A stretch of 64,000 nucleotides of DNA, taken from contig CM097887.1 in NCBI GenBank assembly GCA_044892525.1, positions 92,482,397 through 92,546,396 of the forward strand. The letters run 5' to 3'. Both the position numbers and the translations under genes were made by a program. The notes below the pieces were generated by a model. The model was not told where the DNA came from. It saw only the letters and a list, made by a program, of their open reading frames with translations, and did no database searches. This DNA is from Schmidtea polychroa (Eukaryota). This document shows, piece by piece, positions 52,949 through 64,000 of the stretch (positions are counted from its first letter, which is position 1; each line of letters begins with the position of its first letter).

Positions 52949-55900
52949 TTAGTATTTTAATTTTAACTCCTCACATCCCCCTTTTTTAAAATGTTTGATC
53001 TTCTCAACATTTCTGACTACCATCTTCCCATTTTGATCTTTAAGTAAGTAGCTCCGTTCATGTATTTTCTTTATCACTTTGTACGGCCCTTCCCACCTTG
53101 CATCGTCTTTATTTCGAATTTCTTGTTTGATCAAAACCACATCTTCTATTTCAAAATCTCTCACTGTTTTGCTTATTTTTGGTTTTAGTGTTTTATCCTC
53201 TATTCTCTTTTCCATATCTTCTCTATTTATTTCTTTATTCGAGTACCATTTCATTCTGTCGATTTTCCTCCCAAATATAATCTCTGCTGGGCTTACTCCC
53301 GTTGTTTTTTGAACTGTTGCATTTAAAGTATATTCTATTTCTGGCACTATATCAGCCCAGTTTTTCCTTCCTCCTTCATTCAATGACGCGTTAATATACT
53401 CTCTGATTGTTCTGAATTGTCTTTCAATAATACCATTCGTGTTATGGTGATATGGGCTTGAGAAAATTAATTCAATGCCAGCTGCCTTTGCTAGTTCTTT
53501 TATACTTCTTGCTTCAAAGTTCTTCCCACAATCTACATGAAGTTCTTTTGGAGCTCCAAACTTTAATATCCATTTATTTAATAACGTCTCACTAATTGTT
53601 TTTTCGTCTTGCTTGTTTATGGCCGTTAATGAGATGTATTTACTATAGTGGTCAATGATTCCGCAAATATATTTCTTTTTGTTGAACGTTTCTTTCAATG
53701 GCCCACATATATCCATATATATCTTCTCGAATGGTTCTGTACTCTTTATTGTTTGAGTTTCCTCCTTTGTCTTGGTTGTTATCGTTTTCATTTTCTGACA
53801 TCTTTCGCAGTTCTCAATTACCTTTTTTACTTCCGTTGCTAAATTTTCCATGTCGCAGTTATTCTGGATATATTTCGTTACTTTCTGTGCACCTGCATGG
53901 CACAGCAATACGTGTACTTCTTTTATCATCCTCTGTCTATTATCTGACGGTATCCATATTTTACCTTGCTTAGTTAGTACCGTGTTGTTTTCCATTATGA
54001 ACTTACAATCTTTATTTTCTAACTTATTCTTTATTTCTTGGACCTCCATATTGTCATTTTGCCACTTGTTATATCCGCCTTCTGCTGTTACTGTTAATAT
54101 TCTGGTTTTAATTTTGCCGGTTTTTGGGTCTTCGTGTTCCATCATACACTGTACACATGTTCCGCATGTTTTCCTGGATAGCATATCCGCGTTTGTATGG
54201 CTTGTTCCTTTCCTGTATTCCATTTTAATATCCAGGCTGCTTAAATAGTTGATCCATGTCTGGAATTGAGCAGTTATTGGTTTCTTCGTTGTTACCATAA
54301 ACGTAATAGCTTTATGGTCCGTTCTCAGTACGAATCTCTTACCATATAAGTAATGGTTGAAATGTTTACAAAAATAGTATATTGCCAATAATTCTTTTCT
54401 GGTAATGCAGTATCCTTTTTCATGGCTGCTCATCGCATGTGAACCATATGCAATGACATGTTCATGTCCTTTTTCATCCTTTTGCGAAAGAACTGCTCCA
54501 ATAGTATCGAAGCTCGCGTCTGTGTCTAATATAAATTCTTTTCTGAAATCTGGAAATACCAATACTGGGGCGGTTATCAATGCTTCTTTCATTTCCCCGA
54601 AAGCCTTTTCACACATCTCTGTCCATCTTATTTTCTCATTGTTTTTTCCGCATATGCTTTCTAGTGCTCTTGCCTTCTTTGCATAGTCTTTTATGAACCG
54701 TCGATAATAGTTACAGATACCCAGAAAGCTCCTCAGATTCTTTACACATTTTGGCTTTTGAAATGATTGTATTGCTTCTATCTTAGTATTATCTGTTTGT
54801 ATGCCGTCTTTATTTATTATGTGTCCCAGAAACTTCACTTCTTTTCTAAATATTTGACATTTTTCGGGGTTCAATCTTAGTCCTGCTGTTGCGATCTCCC
54901 CTAGGACTTTTTCAAATATGTTATAATGGTCTTCTTCTGTCTTTGTGAATATTAGGATGTCGTCTAAATATACCATCACTCCATCTTTCCACAAATCTTT
55001 CAATACTTTCGTCATTAATTCTTGAAATGTTCCTGGTGCCGCTGCAATACCGAACGGCATCCTGTTAAAACAGAACTGTCCTTCTTTTGTTGAGAATGCT
55101 GTTTTCTCTTGAGATTCTTTATCTAACTTCACTTGGTAATAAGCATTTTCCAAGTCGATTGAGCTAAAATATCTGGATCCGTGTAGGATGTCTAAAATTT
55201 CATCTACATTTGGCATTGGAAATGCTTGTCTTTCTGTTATCTTGTTTAATTGTCTGAAGTCTAGACAAAGCCTGATGTCTTTTTTCTCTTTCTTCCATAC
55301 ACAAACTAAAGGTGTGTTCCACGGTGAATTACACTTCCTAATTATTCCGTTGTTTTCTAGATTTTTTATTGCTTCCTCAATCTTGTCTTCCAAATTTATT
55401 GGCTGACGTCTCGGTTTAATCATTATTGGCTTTCCTTTCGTGATGATCTTATGTTTTATCAGATTGGTACACCCAATGTCCCATTTATCTGCCATAAAAA
55501 CATTCTTGTTTGCCTGAAATATTTCTAACAGTCTCTTATTTCCGGTAACCTTTAAAACGTCGATGGCATGACGTAATCTTTCTTCATCTGTTATAATCCG
55601 CCCAAATCTAGCTTCTATTTCGCAAATGAAATCACTACGTTTTTCATGTTCTTCTATTATACATTTCAATTCTATACCAAATAACCTTTGTAGTTCTACT
55701 CCTCCAATAATTTCTGGTATTAAATTCTTTACTATAATGAATGTTAAATTTCTTTCAATACTGCCCATTTTAACATTGATGCTTATTTTACCCATAGTTT
55801 CTAATCTACTGTTGTTTGCACATCTTAGCGATTCCCTTGTTTCTAATATTTCGATATTTTCTAATCGATCAATTACAGATTTAGCCATCACATTAATTCG

Positions 55901-56293
55901 CGCTCCTGTATCCGATAAACAATCTACTTTCCGCCCTTGGATATCCAGTGTTGTACTCGGTCTACCTTGCATTATATTATATGTTATTACTGGACTTTTT
56001 TGTTCTTCTACTGACAAAATATTCTGTTCTCTAGTATCTTCTACAATTTCATTAATACACACGTCTCCATTTTTCTTGAGGAATTTGTAAATTTTCTCTA
56101 TAGTTCTTTCCTCGTGTTTTACTAATTCATTTACTTTACACTCCTCTTTAAATTTTTTCTGAATTTCCTTATCATTCGACTTTTTGATTTCTACACTACT
56201 ATTATTATTAATATCACGTTCAAAAACACTGCAATCTTTATCAATCATACAATCATCATACATACTTAAATTACACATACCGTTAGCATTCAT
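52949..56293 (-). CDS. Pol polyprotein (protease-RT-RNase H-integrase), open; reached by -1 frameshift from gag
   Basis: DTG protease, YLDD RT, LDTDAS RNase H, H-H-C-C and DDE integrase, GPY motif; Ty3 domain order. Confidence 0.96.
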   Translation of the reverse strand: MNANGMCNLSMYDDCMIDKDCSVFERDINNNSSVEIKKSNDKEIQKKFKEECKVNELVKHEERTIEKIYKFLKKNGDVCINEIVEDTREQNILSVEEQKSPVITYNIMQGRPSTTLDIQGRKVDCLSDTGARINVMAKSVIDRLENIEILETRESLRCANNSRLETMGKISINVKMGSIERNLTFIIVKNLIPEIIGGVELQRLFGIELKCIIEEHEKRSDFICEIEARFGRIITDEERLRHAIDVLKVTGNKRLLEIFQANKNVFMADKWDIGCTNLIKHKIITKGKPIMIKPRRQPINLEDKIEEAIKNLENNGIIRKCNSPWNTPLVCVWKKEKKDIRLCLDFRQLNKITERQAFPMPNVDEILDILHGSRYFSSIDLENAYYQVKLDKESQEKTAFSTKEGQFCFNRMPFGIAAAPGTFQELMTKVLKDLWKDGVMVYLDDILIFTKTEEDHYNIFEKVLGEIATAGLRLNPEKCQIFRKEVKFLGHIINKDGIQTDNTKIEAIQSFQKPKCVKNLRSFLGICNYYRRFIKDYAKKARALESICGKNNEKIRWTEMCEKAFGEMKEALITAPVLVFPDFRKEFILDTDASFDTIGAVLSQKDEKGHEHVIAYGSHAMSSHEKGYCITRKELLAIYYFCKHFNHYLYGKRFVLRTDHKAITFMVTTKKPITAQFQTWINYLSSLDIKMEYRKGTSHTNADMLSRKTCGTCVQCMMEHEDPKTGKIKTRILTVTAEGGYNKWQNDNMEVQEIKNKLENKDCKFIMENNTVLTKQGKIWIPSDNRQRMIKEVHVLLCHAGAQKVTKYIQNNCDMENLATEVKKVIENCERCQKMKTITTKTKEETQTIKSTEPFEKIYMDICGPLKETFNKKKYICGIIDHYSKYISLTAINKQDEKTISETLLNKWILKFGAPKELHVDCGKNFEARSIKELAKAAGIELIFSSPYHHNTNGIIERQFRTIREYINASLNEGGRKNWADIVPEIEYTLNATVQKTTGVSPAEIIFGRKIDRMKWYSNKEINREDMEKRIEDKTLKPKISKTVRDFEIEDVVLIKQEIRNKDDARWEGPYKVIKKIHERSYLLKDQNGKMVVRNVEKIKHFKKGGCEELKLKY

Positions 56294-56316
56294 TCTTTGG
56301 TTGAAATCAATATTAC

Positions 56317-57428
56317 TTAGTAAATTGCTCCGATCAATGTCCCGTTTGACGGAGCGTGCTCGTTTGGGTCATTCTCCCTGTTATACTCGTCTGGCTGGCT
56401 TGACTGTTTTGTATTCATCATCTCATCATCAGACTCGATAGCTGCAATATCTTTTCTGTTATATTGTTGATTTCCCCATTGTCTTTGATGTACGTTCCTT
56501 GATCTTCCCTTTGTTGATAGGTATTTCTTTGAATTCTTCCTCCTGACATCTTCCTTTGGTCTCGATCTCTTCCTTGATTTCGTCTTTCCATATTTGTGTA
56601 GCACTCTCTTTCTTTGTGTCCTCGTGCATTGCATCTATGACATTTGATTGTTGGGCATTCTCTTCGTATGTGACCTTCAACACCACATGCATAACATTGA
56701 AATCTTCTTTTTATATTACATTCTCTGCTACTGTGTCCCGGTTTTTGACACGTCCAGCATTCTATCACTTTAATTCTTGTCTCTGGTTTCCATTCGTTGA
56801 TTTTTCTCTTCGTGGCTCCAACTTGTACTACATCTCTATAAGTTCTTCCCCCAGTTGTAGGTCGTATTGATCTCACCGTGTTTACTTGTTCAATAACCTT
56901 GTTAACTTTTTCTATCTTCTTTATAGTTTCTTTAATTTGTTCCGCCGTTTTGAGATCTTTCATTTCGATTTCTTTCCTGACTTCTTTATCTTTTACACAA
57001 TGTGTCAATAAAAATTTCTGAATTTCTTCCTCATTCCAAGTGTGTGAGGCCAATTTTTTAGTCATTTTTGATATTTTCTCTATAAATATTTCCGCTGATT
57101 CGTTACCTTGCTCGTAGTTCAAGGCTTCTCTTAAGTCATCAATCAATGACGTTGGTCGATGAAAAGCTGCTCTTAATTTCTGTTCAACGGTTTTACCTTC
57201 TGCGGTTTCATATTCTTCAATCAAAGTCCTGTCCAGAAGTGTAATAACTAGTACCATTTGGGTCTTCACTGGTGTCTTCGTTATTTCAAAGAACCTCTGA
57301 CATTCTTTGATAAATAATTCGAGGTCATCTCCTCTGTGGAATTTTTCTGGAAGTAATCTTCCAATAAGCAGATCCGTTGGAATGGTCGCCATGTTAGAAG
57401 CTATAACATTTAATTCTTCTGTCATCAA
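56317..57428 (-). CDS. Gag with CCHC zinc knuckles; 1-nt frameshift near 56515
   Basis: CWTCQKPGHSSREC, CYACGVEGHIRREC, CHRCNARGHKEREC; the natural C-terminus continues in frame 56317-56634. Confidence 0.9.
56327..56368 (-). other. -1 programmed ribosomal frameshift signal
   Basis: C CCA AAC heptamer (56368-62) in gag frame, 6-nt spacer, stem GCTCCGTCAA/TTGA(T)CGGAGC with 8-nt loop; the pol frame opens exactly at the heptamer. Confidence 0.8.
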
Positions 57429-58412: not shown

Positions 58413-59223
58413 CCTTTATATGGTATTGTGGACATTTTTGTCAAAATTATTTTTTAAATGTAAATAACGCCTGAATACAAACTTAAGTTTGAAAAATTTT
58501 TCAATGTAAATTCTTCTTTTTTTTAAATTAATAATTTGCCGCTTAATTTATTTTATGGTGTCATACAGATTTCTAGGTATAAAAAAATGCACGTTGACCG
58601 TAATGTGGACAAAAATGTCTATAATGAAATTCCTGTTCAAACATGATTTGTTTTTACCTGTTTACAACAAATATATGATTTTTGATTTGACATATGTTTG
58701 CAACAAACATATGTTATTTGTTCTAAATTATTATTTTGTGGGTTTTTTTGTGCATTTATATGCTATTCGTCAAGTAACTTGTACTGACCTTTGCTGCGTC
58801 TAATTAGAATTTGTTATTTACACATTGCATTGATACGATTACGAAGTTTGAGTCTAATATATTATATTTCAACTTATTTTTCTTCAAAAAAAAATCAAAA
58901 TTATGACACATAAAAATCTAACCGATGAAGAAATTCAAGATTTAGTTTTTAGTGGTAGCGAAGCTGATCCATCTGATGATGACCATGTTTTTATTGATAG
59001 CGAGTATTCGAGTTCTGATCAGGAAAGTTTAGGCGATGTAGAGCCAAATAGTTTTTTATCGAAAGATAAGACAGTATTGTGGCATCAAAAACCTGTTAGC
59101 ACCAATTTGGGTCGCAATCGAGCAGAAAATATATTGAATATGACTCCGGGAATTACTAGGTATGCAGCTAGCCGAATCACTGATATAAACAGTGCATCCA
59201 TGATATTTTTTCCGAAAGCTATT
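58413..59223 (+). mobile_element. piggyBac 5' portion, truncated by an LTR insertion
   Basis: TTAA (58409-12) then CCTTTATATGGTATTGTGGACATTTTTGTC, with inverted GTGGACAAAAATGTC at ~58605; ORF 58903-59229 has an acidic N-terminus and W..KP....GR..AENIL..TPG.TRYA (PGBD4-like). Confidence 0.75.
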
Positions 59224-59816
59224 TATTAGCCACAGAGCTGCGGGTATTAATAGAATCCATAACAAAAACACGTTTATTATAAAAACACAAATATTATTAA
59301 AACAAATTATAACGTTAATTTGTTTGAGGAGTTTCTAAAAATAATAATTAATGTATAAGTAAGGATTTCAACATACAATCAAACATGCACAACATCATAC
59401 CATTATTTAAATACAAATTACAAAACGCCTCACACCCCCCCCCCTTTTTGAAAACCTTTAACCACTCAATATTTCTCGTGACGGAACTTCCATTTTCCAA
59501 TTTTATTTCATAACTTCGATCATGAATCTTTTTAGTAATCACACCTGGACCCATGTATCTGTTATCACCTTTATTTCGAACATTTACTTTGATCAATACG
59601 TAATCTCCAATTTGAAATTCGCGATTTGTCGCCTGATTGATTTTTTCTTCTTTCACAATCTCTGAGAACCATTCACTATAAATCTTTTTCCCAAACACCA
59701 TTTCAACTGGAGTCTTCCTAATTGTTTTTTGAAAAGTTGAATTCAACATAAACTGAACTTCGGGAAGAATATCTACCCATGATTTATGTCTTTTATCTTT
59801 GAGTGTTATCTATATT
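59224..59816 (-). mobile_element. 3' part of a second Ty3 family: integrase C-terminus, PPT and 211-bp 3' LTR (59224-59434)
   Basis: SWVDILPEVQFMLNST...TPVEMVFG...YMGPG...VFKKGGGCE; PPT AAAAAGGGGGGGGGG followed by TGTGAGG as in the intact element; coding sequence stops abruptly at 59816. Confidence 0.85.
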
Positions 59817-59927
59817 AGTAGATGGATTGGGCACCGCTGGCACAGGGCACCGCTAGCACAGTACCCCCCCCCCCCCCCCCCGTCGTCATATTTTTCAAAA
59901 ATATGCTAAGTCTAAAAGTACATTTTT

Positions 59928-60549
59928 TTAAACAAAGACATATGACTCATCCAGGTCATTGAAACAAAGACCATGACTCGTAGTATGACTCATCAAATTT
60001 CTCAAGGTCATTTAAACAAAGACCATGACTCATCCTATGACTCATCAAGGTCATTTTCAAGGTCGTATGACGCATAGTATGACTCATCAAGGGCAAAAAT
60101 TTTTTTCAGGGTCATTTAAACAAAGACCATGACTCATCAAGGGCATTTTCAAGGGCATATGACTCATACTATGACTCATATGACCTTGAAAATTTTTCCA
60201 AGGTCATATGACTCAGAGTATGACTCATCAAAAATTTCAAGGTCATTTAAACAAAGACCATGACTCATAATATGACTCATCAAGGTCATTTTCAAGGTCA
60301 TCTGCCTCATCCTATGACTCATCAAGGTCATTTTCAAGGTCATATGAGCTATAGTATGAGTCATATGACCTTGAAAAAATTTTCTCAAGGTCATATGTCT
60401 CATACCATGACTCATCAACAATTTTCAAGGTCATTTTCAAGGTTTTCTGAGTCATGGTATGACTCATCAAGGTCATTTTCAAGGTCGCATGACTCATCCA
60501 AGGTCATTCCCAAGGTCATCTGAGTCATCGCGATGAGTCATCAAGGTCA
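59928..60549. promoter_or_regulatory. Dense modular array of transcription-factor-type sites
   Basis: By eye about 20 TGA(C/G)TCA, about 16 CAAGGTCA and 5 AAACAAAGAC modules in shuffled order and both orientations. Confidence 0.7.
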
Positions 60550-60683
60550 TATTATTATTTTTAAAAAATATTATTATTTTTATTATTATTTTTAAAAATA
60601 TTATTATTTTATTTTTAATTTTTTCAAAGTTCCCGCCAACGAAAATTAATAATCGATAGCTCATTTTAAAGCTCAATCCAAGA

Positions 60684-60831
60684 NNNNNNNNNNNNNNNNN
60701 NNNNNNNNNNNNNNNNNNNNNNNNNNNNNNNNNNNNNNNNNNNNNNNNNNNNNNNNNNNNNNNNNNNNNNNNNNNNNNNNNNNNNNNNNNNNNNNNNNNN
60801 NNNNNNNNNNNNNNNNNNNNNNNNNNNNNNN
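60684..60831. other. Assembly gap (148 N)
   Basis: Run of N. Confidence 1.
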
Positions 60832-60932
60832 CTATATACTCCTAGTCTATCCGACAAAATATTTTTCCCCCTATGGGTAATGCTCACAAAGGTACTGGTC
60901 ACGCTCAACAAATCAACAAAACATACATTTAT

Positions 60933-61430
60933 TTAAACAATAAAATAATGTAAAATTAACAAAGGTAAACTAAATATTGATGTACTATTCGCAGCAATAT
61001 TGTTTGAAATTGGTAACGTAGAATTGATTTTCAGAGATTCTATTGATCCTTTGATTGTTTGAATTTCTCTTAATAATAATTCAATCTTTTTTAACAAATA
61101 ATCATGCTTCTTATCAATTATTTTCATATTCATTTTATTTTCAACAATAGAGTTATTGAAAACCTTAATATGATCAATCAATTCAAATTTTATATTTTGT
61201 ATATATTCAAATGATAGTTCATAACTGTTTTCTAAATTCTCCAATCTTTGAGATATTATTTTTCCTGGATGCTTTGACCATTTTGGTTTGTCGAGAATAT
61301 ATAAAATATCCATCAACTTGGCTGTATTCGGACAAACACATATTGATTTATTAAAAGACTCCACTGTTATTGTTGTATTGTGTGAGCACACACTCGTTAT
61401 AATAATTAGCAATATGAATATAGTTTTCAT
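60933..61430 (-). CDS. 165-aa secreted/surface protein: signal peptide, coiled coil, hydrophobic (GPI-like) tail
   Basis: MKTIFILLIIITSVCS signal; several N-x-S/T sites; heptad region; tail NIAANSTSIFSLPLLILHYFIV; AATAAA at the stop. Confidence 0.75.
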   Translation of the reverse strand: MKTIFILLIIITSVCSHNTTITVESFNKSICVCPNTAKLMDILYILDKPKWSKHPGKIISQRLENLENSYELSFEYIQNIKFELIDHIKVFNNSIVENKMNMKIIDKKHDYLLKKIELLLREIQTIKGSIESLKINSTLPISNNIAANSTSIFSLPLLILHYFIV

Positions 61431-61535
61431 GGTGTATCAAATCAAAACCTTTCTTTTACATTTATAGTCTATCAACCAATCAAAATCATCCGGTATTAGT
61501 ATAAATAAAACATCATATTTTAAATTATTGTAAAA

Positions 61536-62056
61536 ATGTCTCAATTTATGGAAAATCTTTTAAGAGAACTCGTCAACAGGAATATTATGGAAAGCCTATG
61601 TTTCCTGGTCGATCGGACCGAAAAGATTATAGAAGGTAATCACATTGATTATGAAGATGTGATCAATTCTGATTGTCTCGAAACCAAAAAATTCTATTTT
61701 AATAGAATTTTTAACTGTCTATGCGACGATCAGATGAAGTGGACCCGAATACTAGTAGGGTTCGCTTATATGAAAATAATAATCCAAAGAAGTCTATGGG
61801 ACTCAGAGCACTATTATCAGTGGTCTCAAGAAGTAATACTTTTATAATTTATATTTTATTAATATTTATTTTCTAGATAATCAAGTCAAAGTTTCAGCCA
61901 TGGATTGAAGCCAATGGCGGATGGGGAGTACTCAATCAACTCGCCAGAAATGCAAAAGAAATAGACGATCAGAAAAGAAAATTTAAAAACTATGTAAAAC
62001 TTGCAACAGGTGTTGCTATTTTGTATATTTTAACCAGATTTTTAAATAAAAATTAA
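61536..62056 (+). CDS. Bcl-2 family protein, 158 aa, two exons (61536-61832, 61877-62056)
   Basis: 44-nt GT-AG intron, phase 0; BH1-like LCDDQMKWTRILVGFAY; BH2 FQPWIEANGGWGVL; C-terminal anchor LATGVAILYILTRFLNKN*. Confidence 0.88.
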
Positions 62057-62139
62057 TATAGTTATTTTTGTTTGATTTTTAAATAAATTTTTAAATAACA
62101 TTTTAAATAAATTTACAAACACTAATTAACTAAGATTTA

Positions 62140-62549
62140 TTAATTAAGACATTCGCTGTCGTCATCTCCACATTTCATTATATTTTCAACGACATGATCA
62201 ATACAATCATTCGTAATATTATCTTTAGATTCATCTTTAGGTTCCTCTATAGGTTCCTCTATAGGTTCCTCTATAGGTTCCTCTATAGGTTCATCTATAG
62301 GTTCATAGATTTCCTCATCAATTTCTTGAGTATCGGTTTCTTGAGTTTCTTCCTCATCATCAAATCCTGTATCTTGACTCTCAACTAACCAGCCGATATT
62401 TAAGGCATTTGTAATAGATAATATGTCCTCAATTTTCACACCAGATATTTCTGCTAACTTTTCCAACAAAAAGTTGATTAAAAATTCTAAATAATAAATA
62501 ATTCGGTAATTAATTAATCATGTTAACCTTTTTCTGTAGTCATTTTCAT
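62140..62549 (-). CDS. 122-aa acidic protein with EEPI repeats, two exons (62549-62528, 62486-62140)
   Basis: The listed ORF has no ATG; a 41-nt GT-AG intron joins MKMTTEK|EFLINFLLEKL in frame; 12-bp tandem repeat ATAGAGGAACCT. Confidence 0.72.
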
Positions 62550-62675
62550 CACTTTAAAACTATATTATAATTTTGTTTATAGATTTTCTTTGTTAAATTT
62601 GCATGTCATTTGCATTTATGTTGCAATTAATAAAGAGAAAAACAAATCTGACTAATGCATTTATTAAATATAACA

Positions 62676-63086
62676 TTAAAATATTTGTGAAAGTCTAGCA
62701 GACATAATTTTCCAAATAGGAGAATATACATCATTATTATCAACTTTATATCCCTGGATTGCTATTGTTATATACCAATTTTCATTTTCTTTGAAACTGA
62801 TTTCATCAAAAGCATCATAAAATCTTGCATATCTATTGTTGAACCATGCATGTTGATTACACGATAGATTCGAATCTATCCGTTTAAAAACATCATCAAT
62901 AGTTTTGACATCAATCATTGAAAGCGTGCCGGATAAGAATTCGAATTTAGTTGGAATTAGCTTGACTGGTGCAACCAATTTCATATTGATTTCTTCTTTC
63001 AAAAAATACATTTTGTAGTTGTGGAACATTTGAACTGGTTGTACCATTTCTTTAGGTTTTTCGGTGCTTGAAATTTTCTTGGTCAT
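62676..63086 (-). CDS. 136-aa protein, possible OB-fold ssDNA-binding protein
   Basis: Clean ATG-TAA ORF with TATAAAA 35 nt upstream; beta-rich C-terminus WYITIAIQGYKV...YSPIWKI recalls viral SSB strands (by eye only). Confidence 0.6.
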   Translation of the reverse strand: MTKKISSTEKPKEMVQPVQMFHNYKMYFLKEEINMKLVAPVKLIPTKFEFLSGTLSMIDVKTIDDVFKRIDSNLSCNQHAWFNNRYARFYDAFDEISFKENENWYITIAIQGYKVDNNDVYSPIWKIMSARLSQIF

Positions 63087-63362
63087 CGTGAATAATGAAT
63101 AAATTTAAATGTTACAGGGTTTTTATACCTTTGACTCATGCCTATCAACCAATCAGATTACAGTATGTCTTTGTTTAAATTTGCATTTCATTTGCATTAA
63201 TGCTGCATTTATGTTCTATTAATGTACATATTATTAATGTTTTATTATTACTATCATTATTTCTATTATTATTATTTCTAATTCTATTATTTATATTATT
63301 ATTATTATTATTATTTCTAATTCTACTTCAAATATAAAAAAAAACTCAATACAAAAATACAT

Positions 63363-63777
63363 TTATTGATATTTATCTACAATCCGGGAGTAGTGAAACC
63401 TTCTCAGAGTTTTCACTAACTCCCATTCCACATATCGCCGATATCGATCGGCACAGCAGGAACATCCGAACATACATTGATATTCCGGCTTCATTTCTTT
63501 CACTGTTCTGTTAATCTTTATATCCCATAAGAATTGATGGAATACCTCCATAATTCTTATTTGGGTTGAGTAGAAAATGAGGTCCGGAATTATTTCTGCT
63601 TCTCGATCCTTGATGATTTCAATAATTTGAGGATAATAGTATTTGAGTGTATTGATCATTACATCTAAATATTTTTCTAAAATAATAAATAGTAAATAAT
63701 GTGAAAATAAAAATTTAAAATTTACCGTAATCGTCGATATCCTTCATGAGGTTTGCAGAGCTTGGTAATTTGTACAT
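63363..63777 (-). CDS. 121-aa hypothetical protein with CxxxCxCC motif, two exons (63777-63726, 63676-63363)
   Basis: 49-nt GT-AG intron joins MYKLPSSANLMKDIDDY|EKYLDV in frame to the listed ORF; three CCAAT boxes at 63830-63870. Confidence 0.75.
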
Positions 63778-63851
63778 GATGTTGAAAAAAATGAATTCTA
63801 AACAAAAACCGTTTGTTTAAATCAATCAATAACCAATAAGAAATTAACCAA

Positions 63852-64000
63852 TTAGAAATCGACCAATGAAATTATCTCATTTCGAACATTGTCAACAAAT
63901 TCTCTATACTCCAAATTTCTCAACCCCAACATGACAACCTTTCCACTAGCAAACACGTTGACACATATAGGGTTATATTTTAATAGTCTTAGTGCCGGAA
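63852..64000 (-). CDS. C-terminal 49+ codons of a TATA-binding-protein (TBP)-fold protein; 5' part outside the window
   Basis: (x)PALRLLKYNPICVNVFASGKVVMLGLRN aligns to the TBP repeat [29 protein letters not shown]; not in the ORF track (too short). Confidence 0.72.
   Translation of the reverse strand, partial: PALRLLKYNPICVNVFASGKVVMLGLRNLEYREFVDNVRNEIISLVDF

Follow-up and report, generated by a model that had tools for sequence, protein, structure and literature searches.

We found that a Polinton in the genome of Schmidtea polychroa carries a real and conserved gene for a miniature TBP (mini-TBP), whose DNA face is remodelled and which co-occurs with a promoter word, YATAAACR. Judged from sequence, the protein is probably (with a probability of about 0.6) an element-encoded late-promoter factor that would work like the TBP mimics of herpesviruses. 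The window, i.e., the whole 64,000-nucleotide stretch analysed, lies on contig C3 (92482397-92546396) of a 781-Mb assembly; coordinates above 64000 refer to the window extended along the contig, and positions in locus L009 equal the window position minus 60000.

The minus strand from 63998 to 63852, at the very edge of the window, translates to PALRLLKYNPICVNVFASGKVVMLG and ends at a TAA stop. The initial annotation had taken this peptide for a TBP homologue too divergent to be the host's own TBP, and had left it to the full ORF whether the frame stays open upstream and folds as a TBP saddle. The ORF and its in-window part are as follows.

63852..64000, minus strand: 3' portion of the mini-TBP ORF that lies in the window, residues 98-145 plus stop
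63852-64289 (L009:3852-4289), minus strand: whole mini-TBP ORF (P0001), 145 aa, single exon

The start lies at extended coordinate 64289, and with a frame open upstream (154 codons from stop to stop) the worry about a closed frame falls away; a canonical TATATATA box stands 36 nt ahead of the start. The protein matched the Pfam TBP family PF00352 in two stretches at 56.2 bits (cut-off 22.9; E 3.1e-15), TBPs made up 35 of the 37 matches in a PDB sequence search (E up to 10, best E 5e-10), and P0001 matched TBP clusters in an Atlas search, confirming the homology. The proposed divergence was also borne out, as identity to the TBP-type genes of the same genome was 23-34% over partial stretches. 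At least six such TBP-type loci are present in the host genome, namely L013-L015, which have introns, and the paralogues L016, L018 and L019 (on C2 and C1), which are intronless and divergent with both repeats in one frame. A host TBP exon or pseudogene was considered as the source of the edge peptide and rejected on the grounds of the single exon, the Polinton context and purifying selection. Contigs from four runs (three guessed to be RNA) cover the gene wholly or partly, without giving start, strand or level. In the same genome, 13 clustered matches to TFIIB (PF00382; E 1.5e-8 to 1e-6) at C3:38.2-39.1 Mb and C1:23.8-24.2 Mb lie in open frames of 301-310 aa and apparently form an expanded intronless TFIIB-like family.

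The element that carries the gene is a Polinton/Maverick, which spans 59817 to extended coordinate 78926 (19.1 kb). Its terminal inverted repeats are at least 868 bp long, the left one being 97.5% identical to the right end in an alignment that ends at the window's N stretch, and its ends read AGTAGA...TCTACT, flanked by TATATT and TGTATT, a 6-bp target duplication in which 1 of 6 positions differs. The core genes and terminal inverted repeats around the gene confirm that mini-TBP is borne by a Polinton, as the initial annotation had supposed.

59817..64000, plus strand: Polinton, in-window left part, continuing beyond the window
59817..60683, plus strand: left terminal inverted repeat, starting AGTAGA
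60933..61430, minus strand: 165-aa accessory ORF, behind TATAAATG and a CCAAT box
61536..61847, plus strand: 103-aa accessory ORF, behind TATAAATA and CCAAT
62676..63086, minus strand: 136-aa accessory ORF
63120..63127, minus strand: canonical TATAAAAA box, 41 nt ahead of the 136-aa accessory ORF
63363..63659, minus strand: 98-aa Cys-cluster ORF, next to the TBP gene on its downstream side
64356-64363: TATAAACA box ahead of the A32-like ATPase
64389-65015: A32-like ATPase, head to head with the mini-TBP gene, PF04665 above cut-off
65001-65008: TATAAACA box
65618-66760: integrase-chromodomain, CATAAACA 66 nt ahead, long in-frame ATT run in the window copy
66706-67773: putative minor capsid, GATAAACA ahead, labelled from size and place
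68136-69098: putative major capsid, TATAAACA 42 nt ahead, labelled from size and place
69304-69771: adenain protease, PF00770 above cut-off
72325-76308: polymerase, 1327 aa
77410-77736: RING gene, E 5.7e-10

The integrase, of the retroviral type, matched rve at E 1.3e-5 together with a chromodomain match below cut-off. The polymerase, assigned to the family B DNA polymerases, gave no direct match to PF03175 and is 42-73% identical, stretch by stretch, to its genomic matches. The two conserved ORFs of capsid-like size and place gave no fitting Pfam match, and the frame of the putative major capsid stops at 320 aa in the window copy. The 98-aa Cys-cluster ORF may have an upstream exon. A homologue of the 136-aa ORF adjoins the TBP gene in 21 of 80 metagenome loci, and an Atlas search with this ORF gave no usable match. 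The 103-aa ORF matched Bcl-2 weakly (E 0.008, below cut-off); it and the RING gene, at opposite ends of the element, are possible cell-death modulators. A 75-aa ORF with an MGANPS start (L009:5560-5787) overlaps the integrase start, its counterpart in L060 stands behind its own box, and it could possibly encode a small myristoylated protein. Within the left terminal repeat, positions 59940-60551 hold short repeats with TGACTCA and TCAAGGTCA words, direct and inverted, which we take to be AP-1-like and nuclear-receptor-like, respectively; they are a possible host-signal enhancer for early genes.

This Polinton is young and abundant, with very many copies in the genome. All 40 scored DNA matches were 99-100% identical (among 1252 candidates), and all 150 scored protein matches had a full frame with no stops (among 4167 candidates), the candidates not being copy numbers. 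Two further Polinton families of the genome carry the TBP gene at the same place, with 53% and 60% identity; when 16 loci were checked for an internal control from a different Polinton clade, they held only relatives of the window element. The copy under study appears, from the translations, to have inserted within the integrase region of a Gypsy-type retroelement, of which a C-terminal-like piece lies on the left (59348-59749) and pol and gag pieces lie on the right (L010:8887 into L011). This Gypsy element is itself flanked by transposase pieces (58903-59229 and L011:2947-4274), presumably piggyBac-like, which suggests three nested insertions. A second Gypsy-type element on the minus strand (52949-57425) has open frames of 335 aa and 1114 aa, which we take, by their motifs, to be gag and pol, respectively.

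A word search gave 108 relatives of mini-TBP at 37-97% identity, most of 144-165 aa, and a profile search with a limit of E 1e-10 reached 790 representatives, which likely include canonical TBPs; all 93 aligned members match PF00352 at E up to 0.01. Polinton core genes lie within the contig in 37 of the 80 metagenome loci, in several gene orders, and most of the others are short contigs. The earlier remark that TBP is not a standard Polinton gene needs qualifying: the gene is not an oddity of one copy and is conserved in at least two Polinton subclades. In a quick tree of 44 rows, made without an outgroup, one branch (SH-aLRT 100) separated the 33 family rows from the TBPs of the host and of giant viruses, and the family splits as the ATPases do. 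The median dN/dS was 0.21 over 60 pairs and the 30 closest pairs gave 0.10-0.45, after pairs with fewer than 110 codons or with pS outside 0.08-0.6 were dropped. The mini-TBP family is Polinton-borne and under purifying selection. IMG/VR scans with the ATPase and the putative capsid gave no matches, and a scan with the TBP alignment returned only a giant-virus-type TBP (L025), which is full length, has a canonical DNA face and stands outside the mini-TBP family. Five Polinton contigs (L165-L169) lie inside bacterial MAG records and are most likely eukaryotic binning contaminants.

The structure predicted from 93 sequences (pLDDT 96.2) shows a two-repeat, saddle-shaped beta sheet, and the model superposed on human TBP with Z 13.4 and an rmsd of 2.4 over 143 residues, compared with Z 6.8 or less for other folds; its best Foldseek match had E 4e-9. 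The predicted fold is hence the TBP saddle that the initial annotation had in mind, and both repeats are present, while the expected set of intercalating Phe pairs is reduced to three of four and the helices of repeat 1 are missing. In the model, repeat 2 is complete and repeat 1 keeps its strands within residues 2-48 with neither helix, no helix of at least four residues occurring before residue 81; the G47-Q67 span is 20 residues vs 33-36 in three canonical rows, and two deletions in repeat 1 are visible in the alignment to a host TBP exon. In the register given by that alignment, the intercalating F38, F97 and F113 are kept and the first Phe is replaced by Pro23. The second subclade has longer H1 and H2 segments and the same DNA face, so that the face is the family trait and helix loss is likely derived; long and short members share both DNA face and box.

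The remodelling of the DNA face was counted in 208 family proteins (of 211), a set defined by the presence of R44 or N111 from which proteins outside 120-235 aa were dropped, so that the counts at those two residues are partly circular. Pro23 is present in 189 of them, F38 in 200, F97 in 207 and F113 in 206. On the DNA face, N6 (154), R44 (200), M46 (206), S68 (176), T70 (175), R101 (167), C109 (172) and N111 (206) displace residues of the canonical hydrophobic minor-groove face, which reads N-I-V ... V-x-T-G in both repeats, in most members. The stirrup glutamates are kept in sequence, E93 in 194 and E95 in 206 of the 208. R101, C109 and N111 align with yeast I194, V203 and L205 in an alignment routed via host exons and, apart from 194, 203 and 205, presumed yeast numbers. 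In yeast, the TBPm3 changes I194F, V203T and L205V alter specificity at base pair 2 and permit TGTA (PMC1636458, as far as available). This correspondence would place repeat 2 over the 5' end of the box and repeat 1 over its 3' end. In the accessible parts of the structural literature, TBP is described with four intercalating Phe, kinks at base pairs 1-2 and 7-8, and stirrup glutamates that contact TFIIB (PMC10005294), its convex face is reported to bind Mot1 and NC2, and helix 2 is linked with TFIIA and NC2 only by a reference title (both PMC4565979). Divergent TBPs can change their target, as reported in the available portion of a study of the Giardia TBP, which is without three of the Phe and prefers single-stranded DNA (PMC12209930).

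To this altered protein corresponds a distinct promoter word. Upstream windows from -110 to -10 of the homology-set starts were collected from the window copy, the two sister families and the 80 loci; near-duplicates were removed, windows of less than 120 nt were dropped, and so were those whose start differed from the homology start by more than 45 residues. ATAAAC was the top 6-mer, present in 64 of the 73 dereplicated windows (shuffle mean 5.9, maximum 12 in 200) and in 0 of 73 on the reverse strand. It stands ahead of the ATPase in 25 of 25 cases, the major capsid in 11 of 11, the minor capsid in 10 of 11, orf110 in 6 of 6, the integrase in 9 of 14 and the protease in 3 of 6. Its flanks (5' T39/C21/G3/A1; 3' A54/G9/T1) give the matrix YATAAACR; the protease of the window copy has TATAAAGT ahead. 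For the ATPase, 23 of 25 boxes lie 31-49 nt ahead of the start. In the window copy the ATPase box is intergenic. Across the loci, several boxes lie inside the upstream coding sequence, and second boxes are also seen in a different frame or straddling the stop. The first of the boxes at the 3' end of the ATPase keeps to one frame in 25 of 26 loci, so coding constraint may help to maintain it. In L041, two tandem minor-capsid-like genes each stand behind their own box.

The TBP genes themselves have a different kind of promoter, with YATAAACR ahead of 0 of 59, bare ATAAAC ahead of 5 and a canonical TATA ahead of 29. In the window copy, the three left accessory genes stand behind TATAAA(T/A) with CCAAT, confirming the TATA-like boxes which the initial annotation had seen at neighbouring promoters, while the polymerase and RING genes have neither box within 130 nt. 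The segment 63121-63127, then suggested as a site at which mini-TBP binding might be tested, is an ordinary TATAAAAA TATA box, accompanied by a CCAAT box 67 nt upstream of the 136-aa ORF, and is probably read by host TBP. We rejected it as the specific target, as the word that goes with the gene is instead YATAAACR, which stands upstream of the packaging and putative capsid genes beyond the window. A reversed near-box, TGTTTWA, was seen 20-80 nt ahead of 15 of the 59 TBP genes (loci L029-L088), 13 of them without TATA, and perhaps reflects autoregulation.

The box and the gene occur together. Control loci were fetched without TBP, by polymerase (13 loci), ATPase (5) or integrase (4). Only 1 of these 22 has TBP, namely L165, which was found by its ATPase alone and has both the TBP gene and the boxes; the remaining 21 gave no TBP match and are partial contigs, so that a TBP gene could lie outside them. 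The ATPase box was present in 27 of 27 loci with TBP vs 1 of 21 where TBP was not found, the exception being L164, which has a box ahead of the ATPase. The raw counts were 25 with TBP and box, 1 with TBP and no box, 2 with box and no TBP, and 20 with neither; two labels were corrected by hand (in L074 the TBP is cut by the contig end, and in L101 the box lies at position -45 relative to the homology start), L159 and L160 duplicate each other, and ATPases shorter than 150 aa, including those of L024 and L098, were dropped. Around the ATPase stop, the box was present in 26 of 26 loci with TBP vs 0 of 20 without; the Fisher test of these counts (p 3e-12) was set aside since the rows are related. 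Instead of the box, three loci in which no TBP was found (L154, L167 and L168) have TATAAGA around the ATPase stop. L166-L168 share the core gene order and have ATPases 35-37% identical to that of the window element, compared with 35-39% for the second TBP-bearing subclade, and 17 of the 21 controls belong to distant clades. The near absence of the box where no TBP gene was found suggests that the protein likely switches the box-led genes on; the association needs only 2 changes on the ATPase tree, so it may reflect shared ancestry rather than function.

Mini-TBP shares with cellular TBP the two-repeat saddle, three intercalating Phe, N4, both SGK-type turns and the E-P-E-L-F-P stirrup, but it has 145 aa rather than about 180, lacks H1 and H2 in repeat 1, has Pro in place of the first Phe, shows at least seven changed and fixed DNA-face positions, has 24% identity, and resides on a mobile element. 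In the available part of PMC6541308, the herpesvirus proteins ORF24, BcRF1 and UL87 (of KSHV, EBV and HCMV, respectively) are described as reading a TATT box that lies about 30 bp upstream of late genes, and they are alike in joining a viral TBP fold to a modified TATA, structural genes and host Pol II. These mimics are large proteins that contact Pol II themselves and depend on five further viral proteins (same source, as available), whereas mini-TBP is 145 aa, all saddle, much nearer to cellular TBP and paired with YATAAACR rather than TATT; its Foldseek match to BcRF1 was weak (E 0.028), and the herpesvirus mimics are a working analogue, not family. Giant viruses and mirusviruses also carry TBPs, according to the accessible text of PMC10132985 and PMC10675990, and the BFVD matches of the mini-TBP model include viral TBP homologues. 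As far as these partial sources go, the TBPs of Nucleocytoviricota and mirusviruses are likewise viral TBP-fold genes, often divergent, but they belong to far larger viruses, many with their own RNA polymerase. In the openly accessible Polinton literature searched, the only TBP lead was the legend of Fig. 5 in Starrett et al. 2021 (PMC8502044, available in part), which lists TBP among the genes of MELD viruses with adintovirus-like PolB; in the main text available, TBP and TATA occur only in that legend. The figure or the preprint supplements of that paper may name the mini-TBP family; a supplement of the paper itself gave no match. TATA and TBP terms are absent from PMC10748475, PMC8097293 and 10.64898/2026.06.19.733378, the only term match in the available part of PMC12220804 was an author name, and that of PMC13134418 held nothing specific.

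Taken together, these results fit a model in which host TBP and Pol II would first transcribe mini-TBP and the three accessory genes from canonical TATA boxes, and YATAAACR would act as the core promoter of the packaging ATPase, the putative capsid and neighbouring core genes. Mini-TBP would bind this word in the minor groove, with repeat 1 at the 3' half, where Pro23 and Arg44/Met46/Asn6 would match the C at position 7, and repeat 2 at the other half, where the Arg101, Cys109 and Asn111 changes would match the relaxed first base. The E93-P-E95 stirrup would recruit host TFIIB and Pol II, and loss of the convex helices would remove surfaces used by host regulators. The element would thereby have arrived on its own at a switch from early to late genes of the kind found in beta- and gamma-herpesviruses. 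We give about even odds to the broader proposal that Polinton clades carry an orthogonal mini-TBP and a private YATAAACR promoter as an early-to-late programme for virion genes run on host Pol II, including its part that the TBP of the pair has been stripped of the surfaces which host regulators grip. It counts against the model that the box is missing from 5 of the 14 integrase windows and from 3 of the 6 protease windows.

The box could instead be a weak variant of TATA that host TBP or a host paralogue reads, with mini-TBP acting otherwise, e.g., as a TFIIB decoy or a repressor of host TATA promoters, a possibility that we consider doubtful and still the most serious of the alternatives. 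TATAAACA is only one position off the TATA consensus, and several TBP paralogues without introns are present in the host. TATA variants bound to TBP were reportedly described by Patikoglou in 1999, and we take C(-25) of PDB 1qn3 to be position 7 of the box. By its title, that entry holds wild-type TBP crystallised on the C(-25) variant of AdMLP, so host TBP may read the box. A very well kept TFIIB stirrup would suit a decoy, but a decoy has no need of invariant new polar residues on its DNA face. Reading by host TBP is likewise at odds with the 21 of 64 boxes that begin with C, which is poor for canonical TBP at the first position, with a position-7 C kept across ATPases only 35-39% identical, and with the TATAAGA that close relatives without the gene (L167 and L168) have at the same place. 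It is less probable again that mini-TBP binds the box for replication, packaging or repression, including that of its own gene. The TGTTTWA near-boxes, the related saddle in replication initiators (4cwe, Z 6.8) and the aid that KSHV ORF24 also gives to DNA replication (PMC6541308, in the part available) are in keeping with such a role, whereas boxes on the sense strand only, at core-promoter spacing ahead of 23 of 25 ATPase starts, and the kept TFIIB stirrup argue for transcription.

Two further explanations would separate the box from the gene or the gene from any function. The Forkhead consensus is RYAAAYA, which ATAAACA fits, and several boxes lie within upstream coding sequence; we nevertheless regard it as very improbable that the word has nothing to do with the TBP gene and is a Forkhead site of the host or an artefact of coding sequence or poly(A). 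GTAAACA occurs in only 2 of 73 windows, ATAAACG in 10 and AATAAAC in 3, and with the word absent from the reverse strand a Forkhead site is unlikely; the intergenic ATPase box of the window copy and the second boxes in other frames or across the stop speak against a coding artefact. It is scarcely credible that the gene is a functionless fragment captured from host TBP and now in decay. Compared with the TBP core it is short by about 35 residues, and it misses two helices and one Phe, but the median dN/dS, the confidence of the model throughout, the separation from host TBPs in the quick tree and the retention of the gene in several gene orders all run counter to decay, which the selection and conservation data largely refute. 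The reading of mini-TBP as a late-promoter factor is thus the one we prefer, and the suggestion of the initial annotation that the element may supply its own basal factor is in line with it.

How the capsid genes of Polintons are controlled, and whether these elements have a viral phase, is a standing question, and Polinton particles have not been observed, as stated in the accessible part of PMC8097293. With a defined factor and an 8-bp box, capsid control becomes directly testable, and the box can be used as a marker for annotating the small core genes of TBP-bearing Polintons. If the proposed role is true, elements of 15-20 kb would have an early-to-late programme for virion genes, and the viral TBP plus altered TATA would have a second independent origin, in an element far smaller than herpesviruses. 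Mini-TBP is also a natural experiment on what TBP can spare of its saddle and on the residues that determine its DNA word.
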